The notes: generated by a model from the sequence alone, not told the origin. A stretch of DNA of 32,000 nucleotides from Pseudanabaena sp. (GCA_044350865.1 JBILGV010000024.1:1-32000), one strand, 5' to 3'; positions 3,281 to 20,759 are shown, numbered from the stretch's first letter. Made by a program: numbers and translations.

Positions 3281-4522
3281 CTAGAAACTAGGACTATTGA
3301 GCAGTAAATCAGAATTTAAAGTCACTGCTAAGTCAGTATTTGGATTGACAGAAGAGAGGGTAACACTGTCACGTCCTAGAAACAGACCGAGTAGAGTGGC
3401 AATCCCTGCACCACCAAGGATTTCTTCAGTGGCAAGAGCGCGATCGCCAGTTACAGCCGAGATCGCGGCGGCGGCAGCAGCACCGAGAGCAGCATTCTGG
3501 ACTAGTTTGCCCACGCTGATACCCTTATCAACTCTCTCAGTTGTAGTCACCACCTTAGAAGTGCCATTAAGTGGCAGCCTTTGTCCATTCGCAAACACAA
3601 GTTCGCTAGCAAAGAACTGAGCGCCACCAGATACGGTTCTCAATTCTCCAGACACTTGCGTACCCGCAGGAATTAAAATTTGACCTTGAGCATTGGTAAT
3701 ATTTTGTGGCACTGTGAGAATCAAAGGTACTTTTTCATCAGGACCTAACAAGATCTTGTCCTTGGAATACTGCACGGCGATCGTATTACCTGCGGGAATT
3801 CTCACCTGATTTTGGACTGGGGGATTATTGGTTTGACCGACGATATAGGGTGAAGCGATCGCTGTCACCTGCCCCGATCGCACTAAGCCTTGATAGATAA
3901 ACGCGGCAACTTCGGCTCTAGTCGCGGTTTGGTTAGGATTTAGAAACTGGACATTAGGATAGTTAACGACCATCCGATTTTCTGTCGCCGCCGCCACACT
4001 ACTTCGCGCATAGTCAGGAATGCTTGCAGCATCTGCATAAGTCTGCAAAATTGTCTCAGGTGCTTGATTTGCAGTGTAATTCAGACCATTAGCAAGGGAT
4101 ACTAAAATCTGTACGCGGGGGATATTTTGAGCGGGTTCAAAAACATTGCCTGGATAACCTGCCATAAAGCCTGTTGTGTATGCTTTTTGAATTGCTGAAG
4201 CAGCCCAATAGTTCGGATCAACATCTACGAACGTGACAGCATTGCGAGTCGGAGCTTTAGTCATCGCTTTGTTCAACATCGCGGCAAACTGCGCTCTAGT
4301 TACGGGATCGTTAGGACGAAATCCACCATCAGGGAAGCCTTTGATAATGTCTCTGGATGCTAACTCTTGAATAAAAGTTTGCGCCCAATAGTTGGTCGGT
4401 ACATCATTAAAAGTTGTCTGAGCAAGGGCGGAGGCTATGCTGATGAAGGGAATTGCAGAGCTACCAATGAAGCTAACAGCGACAAGTAAAGCAGTAGTAG
4501 AACGTTGCGTTTGATTTGTCAT
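3281..4522 (-). CDS. S-layer homology (SLH) domain protein with signal peptide and a glycine/alanine-rich C-terminal hydrophobic segment
   Basis: Three SLH-like repeats (FNDVPTNYWAQTFIQELASRDIIKGFPDGGFRPNDPVTRAQFAAML; FVDVDPNYWAASAIQKAY; YADAASIPDYARSSVAAA). The N-terminus is a hydrophobic signal. Confidence 0.8.
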   Translation of the reverse strand: MTNQTQRSTTALLVAVSFIGSSAIPFISIASALAQTTFNDVPTNYWAQTFIQELASRDIIKGFPDGGFRPNDPVTRAQFAAMLNKAMTKAPTRNAVTFVDVDPNYWAASAIQKAYTTGFMAGYPGNVFEPAQNIPRVQILVSLANGLNYTANQAPETILQTYADAASIPDYARSSVAAATENRMVVNYPNVQFLNPNQTATRAEVAAFIYQGLVRSGQVTAIASPYIVGQTNNPPVQNQVRIPAGNTIAVQYSKDKILLGPDEKVPLILTVPQNITNAQGQILIPAGTQVSGELRTVSGGAQFFASELVFANGQRLPLNGTSKVVTTTERVDKGISVGKLVQNAALGAAAAAAISAVTGDRALATEEILGGAGIATLLGLFLGRDSVTLSSVNPNTDLAVTLNSDLLLNSPSF

Positions 4523-4651
4523 TTTTAAGATGTCTCCTATGCAAGGTCATGCATATTTGATGAATGACTGTATATTCAAAACAAATGTTCCTGAAATATT
4601 TTTGCGTAAAATACTAAAATACAGGAAAATATTTCATTTTTACAGCTTATA

Positions 4652-4746
4652 ACTTAAATAAATCAATCAAGTCAAACATAAAAATTGTTATGTAGAGCCA
4701 AAATAATTTGACTTAATTAAATAAATCAATCAAATCAAACATAATA
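4652..4746. repeat. AT-rich direct repeat pair upstream of the SLH gene
   Basis: TAAATAAATCAATCAAGTCAAACATAA (about 4655-4681) recurs as TAAATAAATCAATCAAATCAAACATAA (about 4718-4744) with 1 mismatch, roughly 130-220 nt upstream of the start at 4522. Confidence 0.7.
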
Positions 4747-4787
4747 TCGTAAGTAATTAGGAATTACACAAAAAAACTAAACGTAAA

Positions 4788-4817
4788 CGTAGGGGCAATT
4801 CATGAATTGCCCCTACG
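4788..4817. terminator. Perfect 30-nt palindrome downstream of tyrA; probable terminator and member of a repeated palindromic element
   Basis: CGTAGGGGCAATTCATGAATTGCCCCTACG is its own reverse complement. On the minus strand it is followed by a T-rich run. The core GGCAATTCATGAATTGCC recurs at 22171-22200. Confidence 0.65.
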
Positions 4818-4833
4818 CTAAAATCGATGCAGC

Positions 4834-5697
4834 TTACAAATACAGATTGCGATCGCTTTGAGTATTAGTCAAAAAAGCTTCGAGTTGTTCCCATTGTTGT
4901 GACTCAACTAAACCAATCACGTCCTGTAAAGATTGTTGATAGGTATAGAGCGATCGCAATAATGCTGAGTGATTATATTCCGCCATTAGTCGCCCTAATT
5001 CAGGATTGCCGCCACCCACACGACTGGTATCCCGAAATCCTGAGCTAGCTAAATTTTGAGCTAATTGCAGCACGATCGCATCGTTTTCCTGCTGACAGGA
5101 TGCAATTAAACTGGCGCTAATCATCACGGGTAAATGGCTAATCATCGCCACAGCGCGATCATGATCTTCAGGATTACATTCATAAACTTTCATTCCCACC
5201 GTTTGCCAAAGCGATCGCACTTTCTCGACTGCTTCAAGATCATCGCTAGGCGTGACAACACAGGGGCGATTTTGAAATAAATTTTGTTCGGCGGCGGCGA
5301 TACCTTGAAAAGCAGTACCTGCCATCGGATGGCTACCGATAAATCTCTGGTTATACTTTTGACAAATATTGGTCGCAGGTTCAACGATCGCTGCCTTGAC
5401 TGAACCGACATCGGTAAAAATTAGATTAGGCGACAACTTTGGAGCTAGTGCCGAAATCGTTGGTAAAATCGCGGCGATCGGCGTGCAGATGACCACAATA
5501 TCGGTTTGACTGAGAATGCGATCGGGAATATTGGCGATATCTGGATTAGCAATATTTACAGAGGCGATCGCTTCGGCTTGTTTACAGGTTTCAGGACTAC
5601 GGCTGATCCCCCAAACATAATGATCTTGATTTAAAGCGATCAGATCGAGTCCCAGCGAACCACCAATTAAGCCCAATCCAACTATGCCAATGTTCAT
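4834..5697 (-). CDS. tyrA: Prephenate/arogenate dehydrogenase
   Basis: N-terminal Rossmann motif MNIGIVGLGLIGGSLG, and GSHPMAG, typical of TyrA-family dehydrogenases. Length 287 aa fits the cyanobacterial arogenate dehydrogenase. Confidence 0.85.
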   Translation of the reverse strand: MNIGIVGLGLIGGSLGLDLIALNQDHYVWGISRSPETCKQAEAIASVNIANPDIANIPDRILSQTDIVVICTPIAAILPTISALAPKLSPNLIFTDVGSVKAAIVEPATNICQKYNQRFIGSHPMAGTAFQGIAAAEQNLFQNRPCVVTPSDDLEAVEKVRSLWQTVGMKVYECNPEDHDRAVAMISHLPVMISASLIASCQQENDAIVLQLAQNLASSGFRDTSRVGGGNPELGRLMAEYNHSALLRSLYTYQQSLQDVIGLVESQQWEQLEAFLTNTQSDRNLYL

Positions 5698-6779: not shown

Positions 6780-7760
6780 ATGTTTTATCCTCGTCTTAGC
6801 GGCGATCGCTATATCAACCCACTTACAGATTTTGGCTTCAAGCGCCTATTTGGAACCGAGCCGAACAAAAACCTGTTGATTGATTTTCTGAATGTAATCT
6901 TACCAACCCAACATCGGGTCAAAGATCTCACCTATCGCAGTACTGAAAACCTTGGCAATACGCCCCTTGATCGCAAGGCAGTCTTTGATCTTTACTGTCA
7001 AAGCGAAAAGGGCGAGAAATTCATTGTCGAAATGCAAAAGGCTAAACATAATTATTTTAAAGATCGCAGCATTTACTACGCATCTTTTCCCATTCAAGAC
7101 CAAGCAGAAAAAGGAGATTGGAACTACAAACTTGATCCAGTTTATACCATCGGCATTTTAGACTTTGTTTTTGATGAAGATAAAAACGATGACACTCTCT
7201 TACATATCGTTGAACTCAAAGATCAAAATTGCAAAGTTTTCTACGAAAAGCTGAAATTTATTTATCTGGAATTACCAAAATTCAAAAAAACAATCGATCA
7301 ACTAAACGACCATTTTGACAAGTGGTTGTTTTTGCTGAAACATCTACCCGATTTAGAAGAACCGCCTTTACCATTGCAAGAAAACGTATTTATGCAACTA
7401 TTTGAAGTTGCCCGAATTACGAACTTTTCTCCAGATGAACGGGAAGCCTATGAAAACAGCTTAAAGTATTATCGAGACATGAATGGTGTCATTGAAACAG
7501 CAAGAGAAGAAGGGAAAGTTCAAGGTATTCAAGAGGGTAAGGCTCAAGGTATTCAAGAGGGGAAGGCTCAAGGTGTGCAAGAGGGGAAAAGCTCTCTTTT
7601 GCTAAAACTGCTTTCTCGCAAACTAGGAACCATATCTGATGAAATTAAAGTTCTGTTGCACGAGTTATCGTCAGAACGATTAGATGTTTTGAGTGAAGCT
7701 TTGTTTGAATTAGAAAGCTTGGCAGATTTACACAATTGGCTCGAAAATATTAACAACTAG
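6780..7760 (+). CDS. Rpn-family recombination-promoting nuclease / PD-(D/E)XK putative transposase
   Basis: N-terminal YINPLTDFGFKRLFG...NKNLLIDFLNVIL, DLYCQSEKGEKFIVEMQ, and a C-terminal EGKxQGxQ repeat followed by an LLL..L helix are typical of this family. Confidence 0.8.
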   Translation: MFYPRLSGDRYINPLTDFGFKRLFGTEPNKNLLIDFLNVILPTQHRVKDLTYRSTENLGNTPLDRKAVFDLYCQSEKGEKFIVEMQKAKHNYFKDRSIYYASFPIQDQAEKGDWNYKLDPVYTIGILDFVFDEDKNDDTLLHIVELKDQNCKVFYEKLKFIYLELPKFKKTIDQLNDHFDKWLFLLKHLPDLEEPPLPLQENVFMQLFEVARITNFSPDEREAYENSLKYYRDMNGVIETAREEGKVQGIQEGKAQGIQEGKAQGVQEGKSSLLLKLLSRKLGTISDEIKVLLHELSSERLDVLSEALFELESLADLHNWLENINN

Positions 7761-15661: not shown

Positions 15662-15700
15662 AACTGAATTTTAAGAATATTTATTGTTTATTTGTTTGTA

Positions 15701-15746
15701 TTTTACAGGTAGGCGATCGCGCATAACCTTAACGATTCAGTCCATT
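15701..15746 (-). repeat. Relic copy of the cobS 3' end (direct repeat X), marking the distal boundary of the inserted cassette
   Basis: 40/46 nt identical to 17668-17713. On the minus strand it encodes WTESLRLCAIAYL-stop, against the cobS C-terminus WTETLSLCAIAYL-stop. The DUF4276-like ORF ends (TGA, 15737-15739) inside it in another frame. Confidence 0.85.
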
Positions 15747-16474
15747 ACATCAACTGCTTTTACCGCGCTCATTAGATTTTGAGTAAAGACTGCATATCCA
15801 CTTGGGCAATGAGTTTTTATAACTGCTAAATCTATGTCATGAGCCAAATTCCAGCGAATCTGTAGTGGGCGTTGATTGCTGGTATTCTCGTCAAGATAGG
15901 TGGATTGGGCGATCGCGCTTTCTAAAATTTCTTTTGAATTTTCTAAATCTTCTAAGTTTTCCAGCTTTTCAATCTCTACACCTAAAATCCCTGAAACAGT
16001 CTGAGTATCGGCAAGTAACCATGTTTCAAAATTTCTAATCGCTAATCCACCCGCACTGCGATCGCTAATTTCCTGTTCATCAGCATCTAAATGATTACTA
16101 CGAATTTTAGCTAAAGCAAGTTCTAAATCACGCTGTCTCTTAGGCAAAATGTCATCAGCATCAGCCACAATCAAAATCATATCGACCTCTTCAGGTTTCC
16201 ACGCGATGACCACTTGGGCGAGATATTTTGGCTGTAAAATTGAGTGTCCAGTACCCCGCGTAAAAAGCCCACTTTCATGATTTGTAGGATGTCGTTGCAC
16301 AAAGTCACAATCTAAACCAATACCTTGAATTTCTCGTCTAATCAGCGTATGCAAAGCACCTTCTTTACCTCTTTCAATAACTTTGCCACCATCTTCTGGG
16401 TTGATGTATGGAATACTTGCACCGAGTTCTGCTTCACCTTCAGCAATTAGTCCAATCCGAATCCGACGATTCAT
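15737..16474 (-). CDS. DUF4276-like protein with Toprim-type acidic motifs (putative nuclease subunit)
   Basis: 245 aa. RIGLIAEGEAE (aa 6-16), ILIVADADD (aa 100-108) and IRNFETWLLAD (aa 146-156) match the EGxxE / DxD / E-x-W-L-L-A-D pattern I recall for DUF4276. ATGA overlap with the upstream ATPase gene. Confidence 0.65.
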   Translation of the reverse strand: MNRRIRIGLIAEGEAELGASIPYINPEDGGKVIERGKEGALHTLIRREIQGIGLDCDFVQRHPTNHESGLFTRGTGHSILQPKYLAQVVIAWKPEEVDMILIVADADDILPKRQRDLELALAKIRSNHLDADEQEISDRSAGGLAIRNFETWLLADTQTVSGILGVEIEKLENLEDLENSKEILESAIAQSTYLDENTSNQRPLQIRWNLAHDIDLAVIKTHCPSGYAVFTQNLMSAVKAVDVMD

Positions 16475-17661
16475 GCAGGATTGCCTCCAAACTGGTTAGT
16501 AAACCAAAGCTCACCGAGAGAGCCATCATAGGCTTCGAGAGCTTTTTGAAAACGCACAGAATCTGTGGGTAAATTATGGACTTGGGTTTTACCTTCATTG
16601 TCAAGCTCTACAGCGCGAACTTGGTGCGGCTCGACATAATTTAGTAATACTGGTGAATGGGTTGTAATCAATACCTGAACTGGCTTACCTGTAATCCCTT
16701 CTGTGGAAACAAGTTTTAATAGCTCTATCATTTTATGTAATAACCAAGGATGCACACCATTTTCAATTTCTTCAAAGCAAATAATACTTGGAGTATCTTC
16801 TTGGTATAACGCTGTTAGAAAAGCTAAAATTCTTAATGTCCCATCAGATATATCAGAAGCAGGAATAGGCGTTTCCGAATATTTATCAATTAACTGCAAT
16901 GAAAAAGTTTGATCTTTACCACGCAGTAATGAGATTCTTTGAATATTAGGAACTAGTAATCTTAGACGTTCTTCTAACTCATCAAAACTTTTACGATTAC
17001 TAAATAAAATGTCGGCTAAAGCATAAGAAATCCCCTCTCCTGTTCTTTCCATGTTGCTAAATGATTGCACTTCGTCAGACAAACTTAACGGTGCGAAATC
17101 ATAAATACAAATCTTACGCAGGGCGCTAGCTATGGGAGAAGATTGATAATTATTAGAAACCAAAAATGTTCTTAAGGGTTCTGTCCATTTATCTGAACAA
17201 CGAATGTCAACGGCTATATTGTCAGAACCAACTAGGGCATTTTGAAAAGTATCTATGCTAAAGCTTTGCTGATGATAGTTAAAACTTGCTACAAGTTCAG
17301 AAAATCTTGGTAAATCAATATTTTTTTCTAATGTCGTGCTGATCATAAAGCAAATATGATCTAGACTTCCATGCCAAAACTTAGACTCAATATTCCGTTG
17401 TTTTTTACTTATGCTTTCTAATGATTGAGAGAAAAAATCTTTGACTAGATTATTACTCGATATGTTTATCAGCCTTTGTAAACAATTAGAAAATACAAAT
17501 AGCGATTCACAAATATTTGATTTCCCAGAGCCATTTGGTCCTATGAAAACTGTTAGTGGTTGGAGATCGATTTCGGTATCAAAGAGGCTCTTATAGTGTT
17601 GAACTTTGAGTTTAGTTAACATCTGTTTGGTGGTTGAGGTCAAATATTGAATTAGAGTCAT
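16471..17661 (-). CDS. ABC/SMC-type AAA_21-like ATPase (partner of the DUF4276-like protein)
   Basis: Walker A GPNGSGKS (aa 41-48, nt 17518-17541), signature-like SDGTLR (272-277), Walker B IICFEE (293-298), NGVHP, and H-loop TTHSP (333-337). About 220 aa is inserted between Walker A and the signature, as in RecF/OLD/AriA-type ATPases. The ATG lies 8 nt after the cobS stop. Confidence 0.8.
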   Translation of the reverse strand: MTLIQYLTSTTKQMLTKLKVQHYKSLFDTEIDLQPLTVFIGPNGSGKSNICESLFVFSNCLQRLINISSNNLVKDFFSQSLESISKKQRNIESKFWHGSLDHICFMISTTLEKNIDLPRFSELVASFNYHQQSFSIDTFQNALVGSDNIAVDIRCSDKWTEPLRTFLVSNNYQSSPIASALRKICIYDFAPLSLSDEVQSFSNMERTGEGISYALADILFSNRKSFDELEERLRLLVPNIQRISLLRGKDQTFSLQLIDKYSETPIPASDISDGTLRILAFLTALYQEDTPSIICFEEIENGVHPWLLHKMIELLKLVSTEGITGKPVQVLITTHSPVLLNYVEPHQVRAVELDNEGKTQVHNLPTDSVRFQKALEAYDGSLGELWFTNQFGGNPA

Positions 17662-17667
17662 ACTTTA

Positions 17668-17713
17668 TTTTACAGGTAAGCGATCGCACATAAACTTAGC
17701 GTCTCAGTCCATT
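17668..17713 (-). repeat. Direct repeat Y: the functional 3' end of cobS (proximal boundary of the cassette)
   Basis: Pairs with 15701-15746 (40/46 identical; 4 of the 6 differences are synonymous in the cobS frame). Confidence 0.85.
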
Positions 17714-18519: not shown

Positions 18520-19806
18520 ATGGGAAATCAACGACCGATCGCTGTGGATTTATTTGCAGGTGTTGGGGGAATGACATTGGGGTTTGAACAAGCAGGGTTT
18601 GATGTACTTGCCTCTGTGGAGATTGACCCCATTCATTGTGCTACCCATGAATATAATTTTCCAATGTGGAAGGTGATTTGTGCCAGTGTTACAGACATAT
18701 CAGGCAAAGAGATTCGTAAAAAATCACAAATAGGCGATCGCGAAGTTGATGTCGTTTTTGGGGGACCACCTTGCCAAGGTTTTTCGCTAATGGGGAAACG
18801 CGCCTTTGACGATCCACGCAATCAATTGGTATCGCATTTTATGCGTTTGGTCAAAGAACTCAACGCTAAGTATTTTGTGATGGAAAATGTCAAAGGTTTA
18901 ACAATCGGCAATCATCGACAATTTTTAGATGAAGTGATTGAGAATTTTAAAGAAAAGGGCTATGACATTCTCAGCCCTTACGAAATTCTTGATGCTTCTT
19001 ATTTTGGTGTCCCTCAACATCGCGAAAGATTATTTTTGATCGGGTGTCGTCAAGGTTTATCGCTTCCCAGTTATCCATTACCAATTACCAAACCAGCCAA
19101 AGCCAAACGTATTGACAAGAAGTTTTCTAATTTATCTGATAGTCCAACTGTGAAAGATGCAATTTCGGACTTGCCAGATATTTCTCAATATCATGAGTTG
19201 ATGAGTCTAGATTATTGTTTGACAGAGCTAGGAAATCCTAGTAAATATGTAGAACTAATTAATAGTTTTACTTCGTCTAATTTTGGTTATAAGCGAAAAT
19301 ATACTAAAGATATCCTTACATCTAGTCTTAGAACGAAACATAAAGACTCATCAATTAAGCGTTTTAAGGAAACATCTCAAGGACAAGTAGAAACCATTAG
19401 TAGATTCTACAAGTTGGATTTAGATGGAATTAGCAATACACTTAGAGCAGGTACACCTAGTAATAGAGGTGCTTTTACATCTCCTCGTCCCATACATCCT
19501 ACTATTCCAAGATGTATTACAGTTAGGGAGGCTGCAAGATTACACAGCTATCCTGATTGGTTTCGTTTTCATAAAACAATCTGGCATGGATTTCGGCAAA
19601 TTGGCAATTCAGTCCCTCCTTTGCTTGCTAGATCCGTAGCTGCTGAAATTATTAGAGGTCTTGACGTAAAACCTTTTATTTCGCGTAAGTTAATTAAATT
19701 GGGAGAAGAGAATTTATTAACCATGAATATGACCGAAGCTGCACAACGGTTTGGAGTTAGTCCAAAAGTTATTGAGCCGAGGCGTAGAAGCACTTTAGGC
19801 GACTAA
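18520..19806 (+). CDS. dcm: DNA (cytosine-5)-methyltransferase
   Basis: Motif I DLFAGVGG, motif IV GGPPCQGFS, motif VI ENV, motif VIII QHRERLF, and motif X GNSVPP, with a variable target-recognition region between VIII and IX. Confidence 0.92.
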   Translation: MGNQRPIAVDLFAGVGGMTLGFEQAGFDVLASVEIDPIHCATHEYNFPMWKVICASVTDISGKEIRKKSQIGDREVDVVFGGPPCQGFSLMGKRAFDDPRNQLVSHFMRLVKELNAKYFVMENVKGLTIGNHRQFLDEVIENFKEKGYDILSPYEILDASYFGVPQHRERLFLIGCRQGLSLPSYPLPITKPAKAKRIDKKFSNLSDSPTVKDAISDLPDISQYHELMSLDYCLTELGNPSKYVELINSFTSSNFGYKRKYTKDILTSSLRTKHKDSSIKRFKETSQGQVETISRFYKLDLDGISNTLRAGTPSNRGAFTSPRPIHPTIPRCITVREAARLHSYPDWFRFHKTIWHGFRQIGNSVPPLLARSVAAEIIRGLDVKPFISRKLIKLGEENLLTMNMTEAAQRFGVSPKVIEPRRRSTLGD

Positions 19807-20255
19807 AAATAAATATCTTCCTTATCCCAAAAGTGAGTAATTGAACGTGGCAATTGAGATGTAATGACTTTTATACCTGAATTTATAAGGTCAGAGTTGA
19901 GAATACGAATAATTTCTCGAACTCCTGCGGCTATTAGCTTACAGTCTCTGGCATTTATATCAGCACTAGTTTTATCCTTGCCATCGATTTCAATTGCTAC
20001 TATTTCTTTACCAGTCCAAAACAGAAAATCAACTTTGATCATTGTGTTAGGTGTACCATCAAAATCAGCAAATGGATCTGATAAGTAAAGATGAGCTTGT
20101 GGTATCGGCAATATAAAATCTGCCCAATGAAGCAATGGATTGGATACATATGGATTGGATGCATTTTGACGATTGATCATACTTTTACAATGCTCAAAAT
20201 ATAGATCAAGAAAACCCTTTTCATACTCACTTTGTAATTCTGAATTTTCTCTCAA
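19803..20255 (-). CDS. Small PD-(D/E)XK nuclease, DUF559/Vsr-like (candidate mismatch or restriction endonuclease partner of the m5C methyltransferase)
   Basis: KVDFLFWTGKEIVAIEIDGKDK...ARDCKLIAAGVREIIRILNSDL matches the D-F...hhhE-h-D-G...RD..L...G..hhR pattern of DUF559-type endonucleases. Its stop codon overlaps the dcm stop codon (convergent, 4-nt overlap). The start is uncertain: TTG at 20255, first ATG at 20180. Confidence 0.55.
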   Translation of the reverse strand: MRENSELQSEYEKGFLDLYFEHCKSMINRQNASNPYVSNPLLHWADFILPIPQAHLYLSDPFADFDGTPNTMIKVDFLFWTGKEIVAIEIDGKDKTSADINARDCKLIAAGVREIIRILNSDLINSGIKVITSQLPRSITHFWDKEDIYF

Positions 20256-20276
20256 ATATTTTCCAATGACAGATAA

Positions 20277-20759
20277 GGAGCCGAAGCCCCCGACTGGTTC
20301 TATGTGCCTAATGTCTCACCACTTCTAGATGGAGAATATCGGCGTTCCTACGTTTTGTGGAAAGAATTTGTCGCGCCTTTAATAGCGATCGAGTTTGTAT
20401 CTGGCAGTGGCAAAGAAGAAGGAGATGCCACGCCGCCTAGTGAGTCCGAAAAGGCAAGTAAATTCTGGGTGTATGAACAAGCAATTCGTATTCCTTTTTA
20501 TGCCATTTTTGATACATGGAAAGATAGCCTTGAACTATATCACTTAATTGACGGTCGCTATACCAAGATGCAGCCTAACGATCACGGTCATTACTCTATT
20601 CCGCCGATGGGTGTGGAATTGGGATTGAAATTTGAGAATGGTGTGGCTTGGTTACGCTGGTGGGATGATGCGGGAAATTTGTTGCTGACTGATGACGAGA
20701 GGGCGGAGAAATTGGCTAATTATTTGCGATCGCTGGGCATTAATCCTGATGAAATTTGA
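20277..20759 (+). pseudogene. Uma2-family endonuclease, 5'-truncated
   Basis: The in-frame open region starts just after a stop at 20274-20276 and reads GAEAPDWFYVPNVSPLLDGEYRRSYVLWKE...IAIEFVSGS...FYAIFD...ERAEKLANYLRSLGINPDEI. This corresponds to the middle and C-terminal parts of long-form cyanobacterial Uma2 proteins. The usual N-terminal segment (I estimate 60-100 aa) is absent, and only a GTG (20304) is available as a start. Confidence 0.6.

Follow-up and report, generated by a model that had tools for sequence, protein, structure and literature searches.

What kind of system is formed by two overlapping minus-strand genes in a 32,000-nt stretch of Pseudanabaena sp. DNA (GCA_044350865.1, JBILGV010000024.1:1-32000; hereafter the window), of which one (A) encodes an ABC-type ATPase and the other (B) a smaller protein with acidic motifs? 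A preliminary description, made from the sequence alone, took the pair for a candidate uncharacterised split ATPase-nuclease module resembling OLD and PARIS. The split ATPase and Toprim-like logic of that proposal stands as the accepted reading of this type of pair; the type itself, however, had already been catalogued in 2024 under the name HEC-01. As judged by profile matches of both proteins, the pair is best described as a divergent cyanobacterial member of the catalogued candidate anti-phage system HEC-01, related to Mad3/Mad4 of the MADS system. It is not a new kind of system and adds a member to a described candidate family. New here are the cyanobacterial subfamily, the genomic sites it occupies, its foreign GC content at third codon positions (GC3) and a hypervariable, recombining insert in the ATPase.

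Family assignment of the two proteins

The name HEC-01 ("Hma-embedded candidate 01") was given by Payne et al. 2024 (bioRxiv 10.1101/2024.01.29.577857) to an ABC ATPase and TOPRIM pair embedded in Hma (MADS) systems. In PADLOC-DB, protein A matched HEC-01A best (PDLC04182, 9.3e-47, 158 bits), with five HEC-01A models below 1e-40 ahead of all other systems, followed by PDC-M07A, AriA (3e-33), AbiLi and GajA. Protein B matched ten models at E<=0.01, nine of which were HEC-01B (the best being PDLC04196, 7.3e-10, 37 bits) and the tenth a weak CARF4--CARF_PDDEXK match (E 0.002). The orthologues of A and B from Nostoc PCC 7107 gave the same outcome. Because the HEC-01B match is weak, B is to be regarded as a divergent member of that family.

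The open reading frame (ORF) listing gives A as 16471..17661(-), 396 aa, and B as 15737..16474(-), 245 aa. As had been described, the two minus-strand genes overlap in the tetranucleotide ATGA at 16471-16474, which is common to the stop codon of A and the start codon of B, an arrangement that would couple the translation of the two. In each of the 55 loci that allowed comparison A and B are neighbours, the 4-nt overlap being kept in 54 of them. The protein encoded by A probably begins with Met14 (17622) and so has 383 aa, because the Pfam SMC_N and AAA_15 profiles align from residue 14 of the 396-aa ORF, gene callers picked Met14 on most of the shown contigs with an identical B protein, and the cyanobacterial A orthologues have the N-terminal consensus MLSKLRVQHYKS. 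The 383-aa numbering is used for A below.

Protein A scored above the Pfam gathering scores for AAA_21 (1.3e-31), AAA_15 (9e-25) and SMC_N (9e-12), in agreement with its earlier description as an AAA_21-like ABC ATPase of RecF/SMC/OLD-type architecture. Its AlphaFold2 model, built from 84 homologues (pLDDT, the predicted score of the local distance difference test, 77), gave 221 Foldseek matches in the PDB at E<=1e-3, headed by PtuA, OLD and Rad50 with a probability of 1.00; the best of them were PtuA of Septu and retron I-A (7e-15) and Thermus OLD (6p74, 3e-12), and Rad50 was found as well. Taken together, motifs, hidden Markov model (HMM) matches and predicted fold point to an ABC ATPase of the SMC/Rad50/OLD/PtuA type. 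The translations contain all of the motifs quoted in the preliminary description, for A these being GPNGSGKS, SDGTLR, IICFEE and TTHSP and for B IAEGEAE, IVADADD and NFETWLLAD, and the large insertion it noted between the Walker A motif and the signature of A measures ~225 residues. The candidate catalytic residues of A are K34 (K47 in the 396-aa numbering) and E284/E285.

The direct match of B to DUF4276 (PF14103; E 6e-5) amounts to 23.8 bits, below the gathering threshold of 30.2, and covers residues 95-225 only (profile positions 51-183). A profile search started from B among 1.84 billion cluster representatives yielded 252 relatives at E<=1e-3, in which ~ten full-length representatives make up the tight subfamily of B itself and, after a gap, proteins of 190-230 aa follow. 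In a wide alignment of 47 proteins (B and 46 representatives), DUF4276 is matched by 43 at E<=1e-3 and by 46 at permissive thresholds, and precomputed PF14103 matches are present for close homologues of B. Since 43-46 of the 47 aligned relatives match the family, B can be assigned by transitive homology to DUF4276, as a divergent and enlarged member; the DUF4276 pattern recognised earlier in the 245-aa partner was correct in this respect. Within the wide alignment, R47, D105, W152 and D156 are invariant, and E12, G13 and D107 are conserved in at least 90% of the proteins; in the subfamily of B, E12, G13 and E16 are invariant and E150 is conserved in at least 90%. The acidic residues picked out in the preliminary description (E12, D105, D107 and D156) are all invariant or near-invariant family positions, and they are the candidate catalytic residues of B.

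Whether B is a Toprim protein is a separate matter. It is established, and restated in a 2025 Nucleic Acids Research paper, that in Toprim domains the catalytic Glu follows beta1 and the DxD motif follows beta3. The AlphaFold2 model of B (pLDDT 85.4, predicted template modelling score, pTM, 0.87) runs in the sequence beta1(5-11), alpha(40-50), beta2(56-60), alpha(82-91), beta3(99-105), alpha(110-127), beta4(140-145) and then a helical C-terminal half; in this model E12, after strand 5-11, and D105/D107, ending strand 99-105, sit at the Toprim positions. The 2025 paper identified DUF4276 and RloB as new members of the Toprim superfamily, and Payne et al. 2024 (10.1101/2024.01.29.577857) described HEC-01B as structurally similar to TOPRIM, with a conserved OLD-like metal site. 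The only weak Pfam cross-matches that recurred among members of the B family were to RloB (6 members) and DUF3226 (3).

The structural and profile comparisons, like the sub-threshold Pfam score mentioned above, are points to set against the proposed nuclease function, though the comparisons tell neither for nor against a Toprim fold. In the PDB, the best Foldseek match of the B model had an E of 0.05 and none reached E<=1e-3; a primase domain of DnaG (5vaz) and the C-terminal region of OLD (6nk8) ranked fifth and sixth at E ~0.1 with TM scores of 0.2-0.37, which is not significant (E 0.13 and TM 0.32-0.37 in the case of the OLD Toprim domain of 6nk8). The model had no matches in BFVD, and no solved relative was found when PDB sequences were searched with the profile of the B subfamily and the wide DUF4276 profile. 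The hhalign comparison of B with Old of phage P2 gave one local match of 13 columns (E 0.19, not significant), which sets GLIAEGEAELGAS of B on VLLVEGKTETNVL of P2 Old (394-406; VLLVEGKTE), at the start of the OLD-like_TOPRIM domain (389-455). The Toprim assignment of B is therefore treated as putative, resting on the agreement of motif and topology observed here and on the two published analyses.

The variable insert of the ATPase

The conservation of A is concentrated in its core. Across cyanobacterial orders, column conservation is 0.82-0.95 for residues 1-45 and 256-383, as opposed to 0.15-0.65 with indels in the insert, and it falls to 0.15-0.34, also with indels, in residues 91-150. Identity to A of the window is 87-97% in the core, while that of the insert (46-165) is 22-45% except in the closest relatives, and in 190 sequence pairs a core at least 95% identical is combined with an insert no more than 45% identical. 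In pairwise Nei-Gojobori comparisons, the ratio of non-synonymous to synonymous divergence (dN/dS) is 0.11-0.51 in the insert versus 0.02-0.06 in the core, that is, 5-10 fold over the core. The insert lies right behind the Walker A helix, and in the AlphaFold2 model it is predicted to form first two helices, then a sheet of four strands and one more helix.

The two parts of the gene also have different histories. Between the window and locus L071 (homologous loci are designated by L numbers), synonymous divergence is 0.38 in the core and 0.13 in the insert (p=8.5e-6); between L008 and L009 it is 0.26 in the core, 0.46 in the insert and 0.09 in the middle segment. The direction of the difference between core and insert varies with the pair compared, and the nearest relatives of A change by segment. 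Because both synonymous divergence and nearest relatives differ between the segments, A is a mosaic gene shaped by intragenic recombination. This recombination is evident within Pseudanabaena only. Exchange of inserts across clades was considered and rejected, as there were 0 pairs with a diverged core (<=90%) and a similar insert (>=70%).

The Insert-1 region was suggested by Payne et al. 2024 (10.1101/2024.01.29.577857) to set the specificity of ABC-ATPase defence systems. Judged by its position, the insert of A would correspond to this region, and a sensor module is a plausible role for it. The coordinates of the insert and of the other features of the pair are collected in Table 1.

Table 1. 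Positions of the genes, motifs and flanking elements of the pair in the window (residues of A in the 383-aa numbering).
Feature	Position	Strand	Evidence and remarks
Gene A, ABC-type ATPase, 383 aa from Met14	16471..17622	(-)	ORF, Pfam, PADLOC, AlphaFold2 and Foldseek; alternative upstream ATG at 17661 gives 396 aa
Gene B, divergent DUF4276, putative Toprim-type metal-dependent nuclease, 245 aa	15737..16474	(-)	Pfam, PADLOC, AlphaFold2
ATGA overlap, A stop/B start	16471..16474	(-)	sequence; 4-nt overlap kept in 54/55 homologous loci
Hypervariable recombining insert of A, residues 46-165, GC 0.314	17128..17487	(-)	column conservation, identity, dN/dS, segment histories
Walker A GPNGSGKS, residues 28-35 of A	17518..17541	(-)	G28, P29, N30, G31, G33, K34, S35 invariant in 84 homologues
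ABC signature-like SDGTLR, residues 259-264 of A	16831..16848	(-)	S259, D260, G261, T262, L263, R264 invariant
Walker B IICFEE, residues 280-285 of A	16768..16785	(-)	C282, F283, E284, E285 invariant
H-loop TTHSP, residues 320-324 of A	16651..16665	(-)	T320, T321, H322, S323 invariant
IAEGEAE, residues 10-16 of B	16427..16447	(-)	E12 right after predicted strand beta1; candidate Toprim catalytic Glu
IVADADD, residues 102-108 of B	16151..16171	(-)	DxD (D105, D107) at end of predicted strand beta3
NFETWLLAD, residues 148-156 of B, third acidic/aromatic motif	16007..16033	(-)	W152, D156 invariant in wide family
Leader, cobS stop to Met14 of A, with TAAAAT -10-like hexamer at cobS stop	17623..17669	(-)	upstream sequences of all loci
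Upstream repeat copy, true cobS 3' end (EWTETLSLCAIAYL*) plus 5 nt	17666..17713	(-)	repeat search, sequence
Downstream repeat copy, overlaps B stop codon and still reads EWTESLRLCAIAYL* (cobS-like C-terminus)	15699..15746	(-)	repeat search, sequence; also in L006

Genomic sites, flanking sequences and neighbouring genes

The source of the window is a freshwater Pseudanabaena; contigs identical to it occur in public metagenomes, and the metagenome-assembled genome (MAG) L006 is 96% identical. A scan of species-representative genomes gave 56 loci, nearly all of them in Cyanobacteria, the non-cyanobacterial ones being one Caldilineaceae (46% identity) and one bin labelled 'Rhizobium' (69%). The pair represents a Cyanobacteria-wide subfamily. 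Its adjacency to cobS is limited to Pseudanabaena (L006-L010, L013, L060, L070, L071), and in further Pseudanabaena relatives (L012, L014, L072) the pair lies away from cobS; the universal synteny with cobS that the preliminary description had named as telling against its proposal is thus not seen. In ~15 Nostocales (Nostoc, Fischerella, Pelatocladus), the urease cluster is split by the pair, which is inserted between ureC and ureB-ureA-ureD on the strand opposite to theirs, as exemplified by L068 (Nostoc sp. PCC 7107, CP003548, 6955-12261). Dolichospermum/Anabaena and lichen-associated Nostoc each have a conserved site of their own, and ~15 loci are unique.

By composition, the pair is clearly accessory or foreign. 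The GC content of A (0.352) belongs to the lowest 0.8% of same-size windows, and GC3 is 0.255 in A and 0.285 in B versus 0.38-0.42 in cobS and the genes for the tautomerase, the S41 peptidase and the 505-aa protein. Both the AT-richness of the ATPase gene, earlier judged by eye, and the accessory status proposed for the pair are therefore upheld, the former as significant. The lack of HIP1 sites (GCGATCGC) in the ATPase gene, which had also been pointed out, is true but not significant (0 observed vs ~2.0 expected, P(0) ~0.13); HIP1 depletion was accordingly rejected as evidence of foreign origin, GC3 being the better evidence. Other AT-rich stretches of the window, with a GC content of 0.31-0.35, are found at 1-500, 4501-5000 and 7001-7500.

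The pair is bracketed by a 48-nt direct repeat, the two copies of which are 88% identical and 1967 nt apart. The insertion footprint mentioned in the preliminary description is hence real and larger than was implied, but it is not that of a recent insertion. Since both repeat copies are clear in L006 and B is followed in L008 and L009 by shorter, HIP1-containing remnants, the insertion pre-dates the divergence of these Pseudanabaena lineages. A pre-insertion allele was not found among contigs with an identical tautomerase gene, all of which carried the pair or ended inside it.

Several details of the flanks may be added. In both repeat copies (15699-15720 and 17666-17687) a HIP1 site is followed by YTACCTGTAAAATA, with the -10-like hexamer TAAAAT in it, and the tautomerase start lies ~35 nt beyond the downstream copy; through the duplication, both the C-terminus of cobS and a promoter for the gene downstream may be preserved. 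Just past the HIP1 site of the repeat, the similarity of L008 and L009 to the window fades. In L072, 25 nt left over from the 3' end of cobS (GCGATCGCCTGCTTGTAAAATAA, 2932-2956) stand right upstream of A, the upstream gene there being that of an SLH-domain protein and not cobS. The presence of this remnant without cobS suggests that the cassette moved, or the locus was rearranged, with the left repeat attached. Direct repeats also bracket the pair in lichen-associated Nostoc (144 nt, 96% in L027; 79 nt, 90% in L021; 26 nt in L019), where they take in the 3' end of a gene and a hairpin and represent an independent target duplication around the cassette; in L027 the distances are ~247 nt on the upstream side of A and 34 nt on the downstream side of B. 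Because flanking repeats recur at this unrelated site, there is a hint of a recurrent route of arrival, for which integration of a Campbell- or att-like kind, or else a long duplication of the target, could account.

Conserved leaders precede A in many of the loci (L014-L021, L027, L029, L033, L035, L043, L047, L056, L069). The Pseudanabaena leader ...TCTAATTTAATATTTGACCTCAACCACCAAAGAGATG is kept even where the upstream gene differs. A second type, ...TATAAAATAGCTAAATCTGCTTACT-ATC-AACAGATG, is found in many loci of other orders; it comprises a TATAAAAT box and the 5' untranslated region (5'UTR) 'AGCTAAATCTGCTTACT.TC.AACAGATG', and occurs in Nostocales, Planktothrix, Tumidithrix and one Pseudanabaena despite their different contexts. 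This second leader may be a cassette-borne promoter or a regulatory 5'UTR. As the leader is conserved in spite of differing upstream genes, it suggests that the pair is an autonomous transcription unit. A scan of the coding strand of the cobS-A interval for two-hexamer promoters and terminators found none, and a promoter function of the leader is something we only infer.

Decayed copies were met with as well. A is cut to its C-terminal part in L011 (8819-9400) and L031 (9756-10004), and in L048 (9366-10720, a Nostoc MAG) a broken A is found together with a truncated B. The shortened A of L011 directly adjoins a Uma2 gene, which gives the impression that the cobS/methyltransferase region was deleted there. 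An extra gene of ~260 aa lies between cobS and A in L070 (8046-8831) and L071 (2179-2961) and is absent from the window; having no Pfam or PADLOC match and not being conserved, it was rejected as a third component of the system.

A block of three genes occupies positions 18520-20759 of the window, between the S41 peptidase gene and cobS: a 5-methylcytosine (m5C) methyltransferase gene at 18520-19806(+), orf150 at 19803-20255(-) and Uma2 at 20304-20759(+). The 3' ends of the methyltransferase gene and orf150 overlap by 4 nt, and their GC3 is 0.28 and 0.225, respectively. The preliminary description had drawn attention to an m5C methyltransferase/nuclease pair 0.9 kb from A and B. The methyltransferase is confirmed by Pfam (2e-71), but its proposed nuclease partner, orf150, has no HMM support, no match being found in Pfam, PADLOC or NCBIfam. 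By eye, orf150 carries 'KVDFLF...VAIEIDGKDK', which resembles a PD-(D/E)xK or Vsr-DUF559-like motif, and it may encode a small restriction or nicking enzyme cognate to the methyltransferase; with a by-eye motif only, its identification as a nuclease was rejected. In the MAG L006, the stretch corresponding to 19663-20274 of the window is replaced by unrelated sequence. The whole block is missing from other pair-bearing Pseudanabaena (L007-L010, L060, L070, L071), in which the S41 peptidase gene directly precedes cobS, and for this reason it is best viewed as an independent, lineage-specific insertion and not as a partner of the pair. In view of this absence and of the low GC3 of the methyltransferase gene and orf150, cobS carries independent accessory insertions on both sides.

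Proposed function and comparison with known systems

It is likely, though far from assured, that A is an ATPase sensor controlling the nuclease effector B in anti-phage defence. In such a mechanism, A and B would be co-translated by virtue of the ATGA coupling and would then assemble into a complex, in which an oligomer of the ABC ATPase would hold or gate the nuclease. The Insert-1-like insert of A (residues 46-165) would recognise an invader-derived cue, which could be a phage protein or an abnormal nucleic acid, and ATP binding or hydrolysis at the conserved site made up of Walker A, Walker B, signature and H-loop would free or activate B. The metal centre of B (Glu12/Asp105/Asp107/Asp156) would then cleave nucleic acid, be it DNA or tRNA/RNA, and this cleavage would halt phage replication and possibly host growth. 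The analysis itself shows the homology, the conserved motifs, the strict pairing of the two genes, their foreign composition and the hypervariability and mosaic ancestry of the insert; complex formation, trigger, substrate and the defence phenotype in Pseudanabaena are the steps of the proposal that we infer.

Published work bears on this proposal in several ways. The deletion of mad3 or mad4 lowers defence by MADS (Maestri et al.), Mad4 is cited as a DUF4276 homologue in the 2025 Nucleic Acids Research paper, and the tree of AAA15/21 defence ATPases in the PARIS paper includes DUF4276 partners. The phage-challenge evidence for HEC-01 itself is contradictory: a later cold-seep study found that one HEC-01 representative gave Escherichia coli B protection from one or more of the phages T7, T5 and T4, while the system tested in E. 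coli by Payne et al. 2024 (10.1101/2024.01.29.577857) gave no protection against any phage tried. No published biochemistry on ATPase and DUF4276 pairs was found. Since the HEC-01 phage tests and the mad3/mad4 deletions have been published, the earlier remark that such pairs lack a known experimental function is out of date.

Apart from the absence of protection in the tests of Payne et al. 2024, several observations on the cyanobacterial pair weigh against a role in defence. The pair stands mostly alone among housekeeping genes, and of the 179 families of immediate neighbours a minority match defence models, among them a Type IIG restriction-modification (RM) enzyme, m5C methyltransferases, DpdF, PsyrT, NsnA and other mad3- or AriA-like ATPases; the enrichment in defence islands that had been put forward as a check is thus not general. 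No relative of B was found on the viral contigs of IMG/VR. For a defence system, the site is unusually stable, being ureC|A-B|ureB in many Nostocales and cobS|A-B in Pseudanabaena. Purifying selection is strong, with a dN/dS of 0.02-0.06 in the core of A and 0.11-0.23 in B, and in no pair did that of the insert exceed 1 (pairwise Nei-Gojobori); positive selection on the insert, with a ratio which is raised but never above 1, was for this reason rejected as demonstrated and is not claimed.

Most of these observations speak also for a domesticated housekeeping module, that is, a resident ABC-ATPase/Toprim apparatus of nucleic-acid maintenance with a RecF-RecR- or SbcCD-like logic, acting in DNA repair or RNA processing. 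Its sites are fixed across clades (ureC/ureB in ~15 Nostocales from several genera, cobS in at least 7 Pseudanabaena), the core of A remains 87-97% identical across cyanobacterial orders under strong purifying selection, the neighbours are mostly housekeeping genes, viral copies were not found in IMG/VR, and the fold of A matches Rad50 too. This explanation is nevertheless rather unlikely, given that the pair was detected in 56 species-representative genomes only and at sites that differ by clade, that decayed copies exist (L011, L031, L048), that the GC3 is foreign, that a hypervariable recombining insert is unusual for a housekeeping enzyme and that the closest characterised relatives are all associated with defence. 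The decayed copies bear also on a selfish, toxin-antitoxin (TA)-like cassette, in which the ATPase would restrain a nuclease toxin and the pair would be kept because its loss is harmful, with no real benefit against phages. Such pseudogenised or truncated copies disfavour strict addiction, and a sensor-like hypervariable insert has no obvious role in it, so that addiction appears a quite improbable explanation, albeit one not mutually exclusive with defence. It draws on the Pfam description of AAA_21 as 'putative AbiEii toxin, Type IV TA system', on the solitary two-gene cassette with a conserved leader of its own, inserted precisely between housekeeping genes with target duplications in places, on its long retention without an island context, and on MADS, where mad5 can be deleted only if mad2 or mad3 is also deleted (Maestri et al.), which suggests a Mad3-dependent toxicity.

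Two further explanations start from the neighbours of the pair in the window. A methylation-linked, MADS- or RM-like system, with the pair as the restriction arm and the m5C methyltransferase as the self-marker, is brought to mind by the latter lying 0.9 kb away, convergent with a small ORF bearing the PD-(D/E)xK-like 'VAIEIDGK' motif, by MAD3 being the best NCBIfam match of A and by the discovery of HEC-01 inside Hma/MADS systems. Comparative context largely refutes it and leaves it very little probability: the methyltransferase/orf150/Uma2 block is missing in L007-L010, L060, L070 and L071, the housekeeping gene cobS separates it from the pair, most other contexts of the pair have no adjacent methyltransferase, and A, at 116 bits, falls far short of the MAD3 cut-off of 420, with no other mad genes present. 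A cobalamin-pathway accessory, co-transcribed with and tied to cobS, would agree with the location of the pair on the cobS strand, 8-47 nt downstream and with neither terminator nor two-hexamer promoter between. With no cobS synteny outside one genus, where the urease operon or unrelated contexts take its place, with the pair away from cobS in L012, L014 and L072, and with a composition unlike that of cobS, such a role is refuted to the point of having practically no probability.

Within the defence proposal, a bolder version may be tentatively considered, doubtful as it is: the cyanobacterial HEC-01 clade could be an unusually long-resident chromosomal immune module, kept over long evolutionary spans at fixed housekeeping sites (cobS, urease operon) and deriving its specificity from a fast-diversifying Insert-1 that alleles exchange by intragenic recombination. 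Were this true, the insert of A would be a swappable sensor cassette inside a near-frozen ATPase-nuclease engine, natural insert variants could be used to map the targets of ABC-ATPase defence sensors, and the duplicated 3' ends of target genes at its flanks would be the trace of Campbell/att-type integration of a cassette without a linked integrase. Irrespective of this version, pairs of an ATPase and a DUF4276 protein (HEC-01, Mad3/Mad4) are widespread, and the present subfamily offers a well-defined, compact and self-contained example with a precise list of candidate catalytic residues. Its natural series of alleles, differing almost only in one ATPase insert, provides a handle for finding the trigger. 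The subfamily also adds to the sparse catalogue of cyanobacterial defence genes, in a group whose phage-host biology is of ecological weight.

As regards known systems, the pair belongs to neither OLD nor PARIS, to which it had been likened. With OLD and GajA of Gabija it shares the fold of A (Thermus OLD 6p74, 3e-12), weaker HMM matches to GajA and HEC-04 and an analogous Glu and DxD pattern; ATPase and Toprim are, however, fused there and encoded by two ORFs here, and B has no match to OLD-like_TOPRIM (PF20469), which P2 Old, used as a positive control, does match. PARIS has the same split logic of an ATPase sensor and a Toprim effector, and A matches AriA models at 3e-33, yet A scores better on HEC-01A and B has no AriB/DUF4435 match in PADLOC or Pfam. 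PARIS offers a mechanistic precedent, in that its ATPase scaffold frees the Toprim nuclease once a phage protein is sensed, whereupon tRNA is cleaved by the nuclease; PARIS is often borne by phages or satellites, in contrast to the window pair with no relative on viral contigs. Septu and retron I-A provide the best structural match of A, PtuA (7e-15), and likewise follow a two-gene logic of ATPase and nuclease, but their effector PtuB is an HNH nuclease and not a DUF4276 protein, and A reaches 49 bits on the NCBIfam PtuA model against a cut-off of 500.

The nearest systems are those in which an ATPase is paired with a DUF4276 protein. MADS combines an AAA_21-type ATPase with DUF4276, and MAD3 is the model on which A scores best in NCBIfam, though with 116 bits against the required 420; moreover, mad6-8, which are mandatory in MADS, have no homologues next to the window pair, nor do other mad genes (methylase, kinase and others) flank it. 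With HEC-01, the window pair has in common the best matches of both proteins, the adjacent and co-directional order of the two genes and the combination of an insert-bearing ABC ATPase with a small DUF4276/TOPRIM-like partner that has an OLD-like acidic metal site. It differs in that B is longer (245 aa) and divergent, with 37 bits on HEC-01B and a score below the Pfam threshold for DUF4276, and in that the pair is free-standing among housekeeping genes (cobS, tautomerase), with no helicase or Hma genes nearby. HEC-01 is the free-standing counterpart of Mad3/Mad4, with a logic analogous to that of PARIS, OLD/Gabija and Septu.

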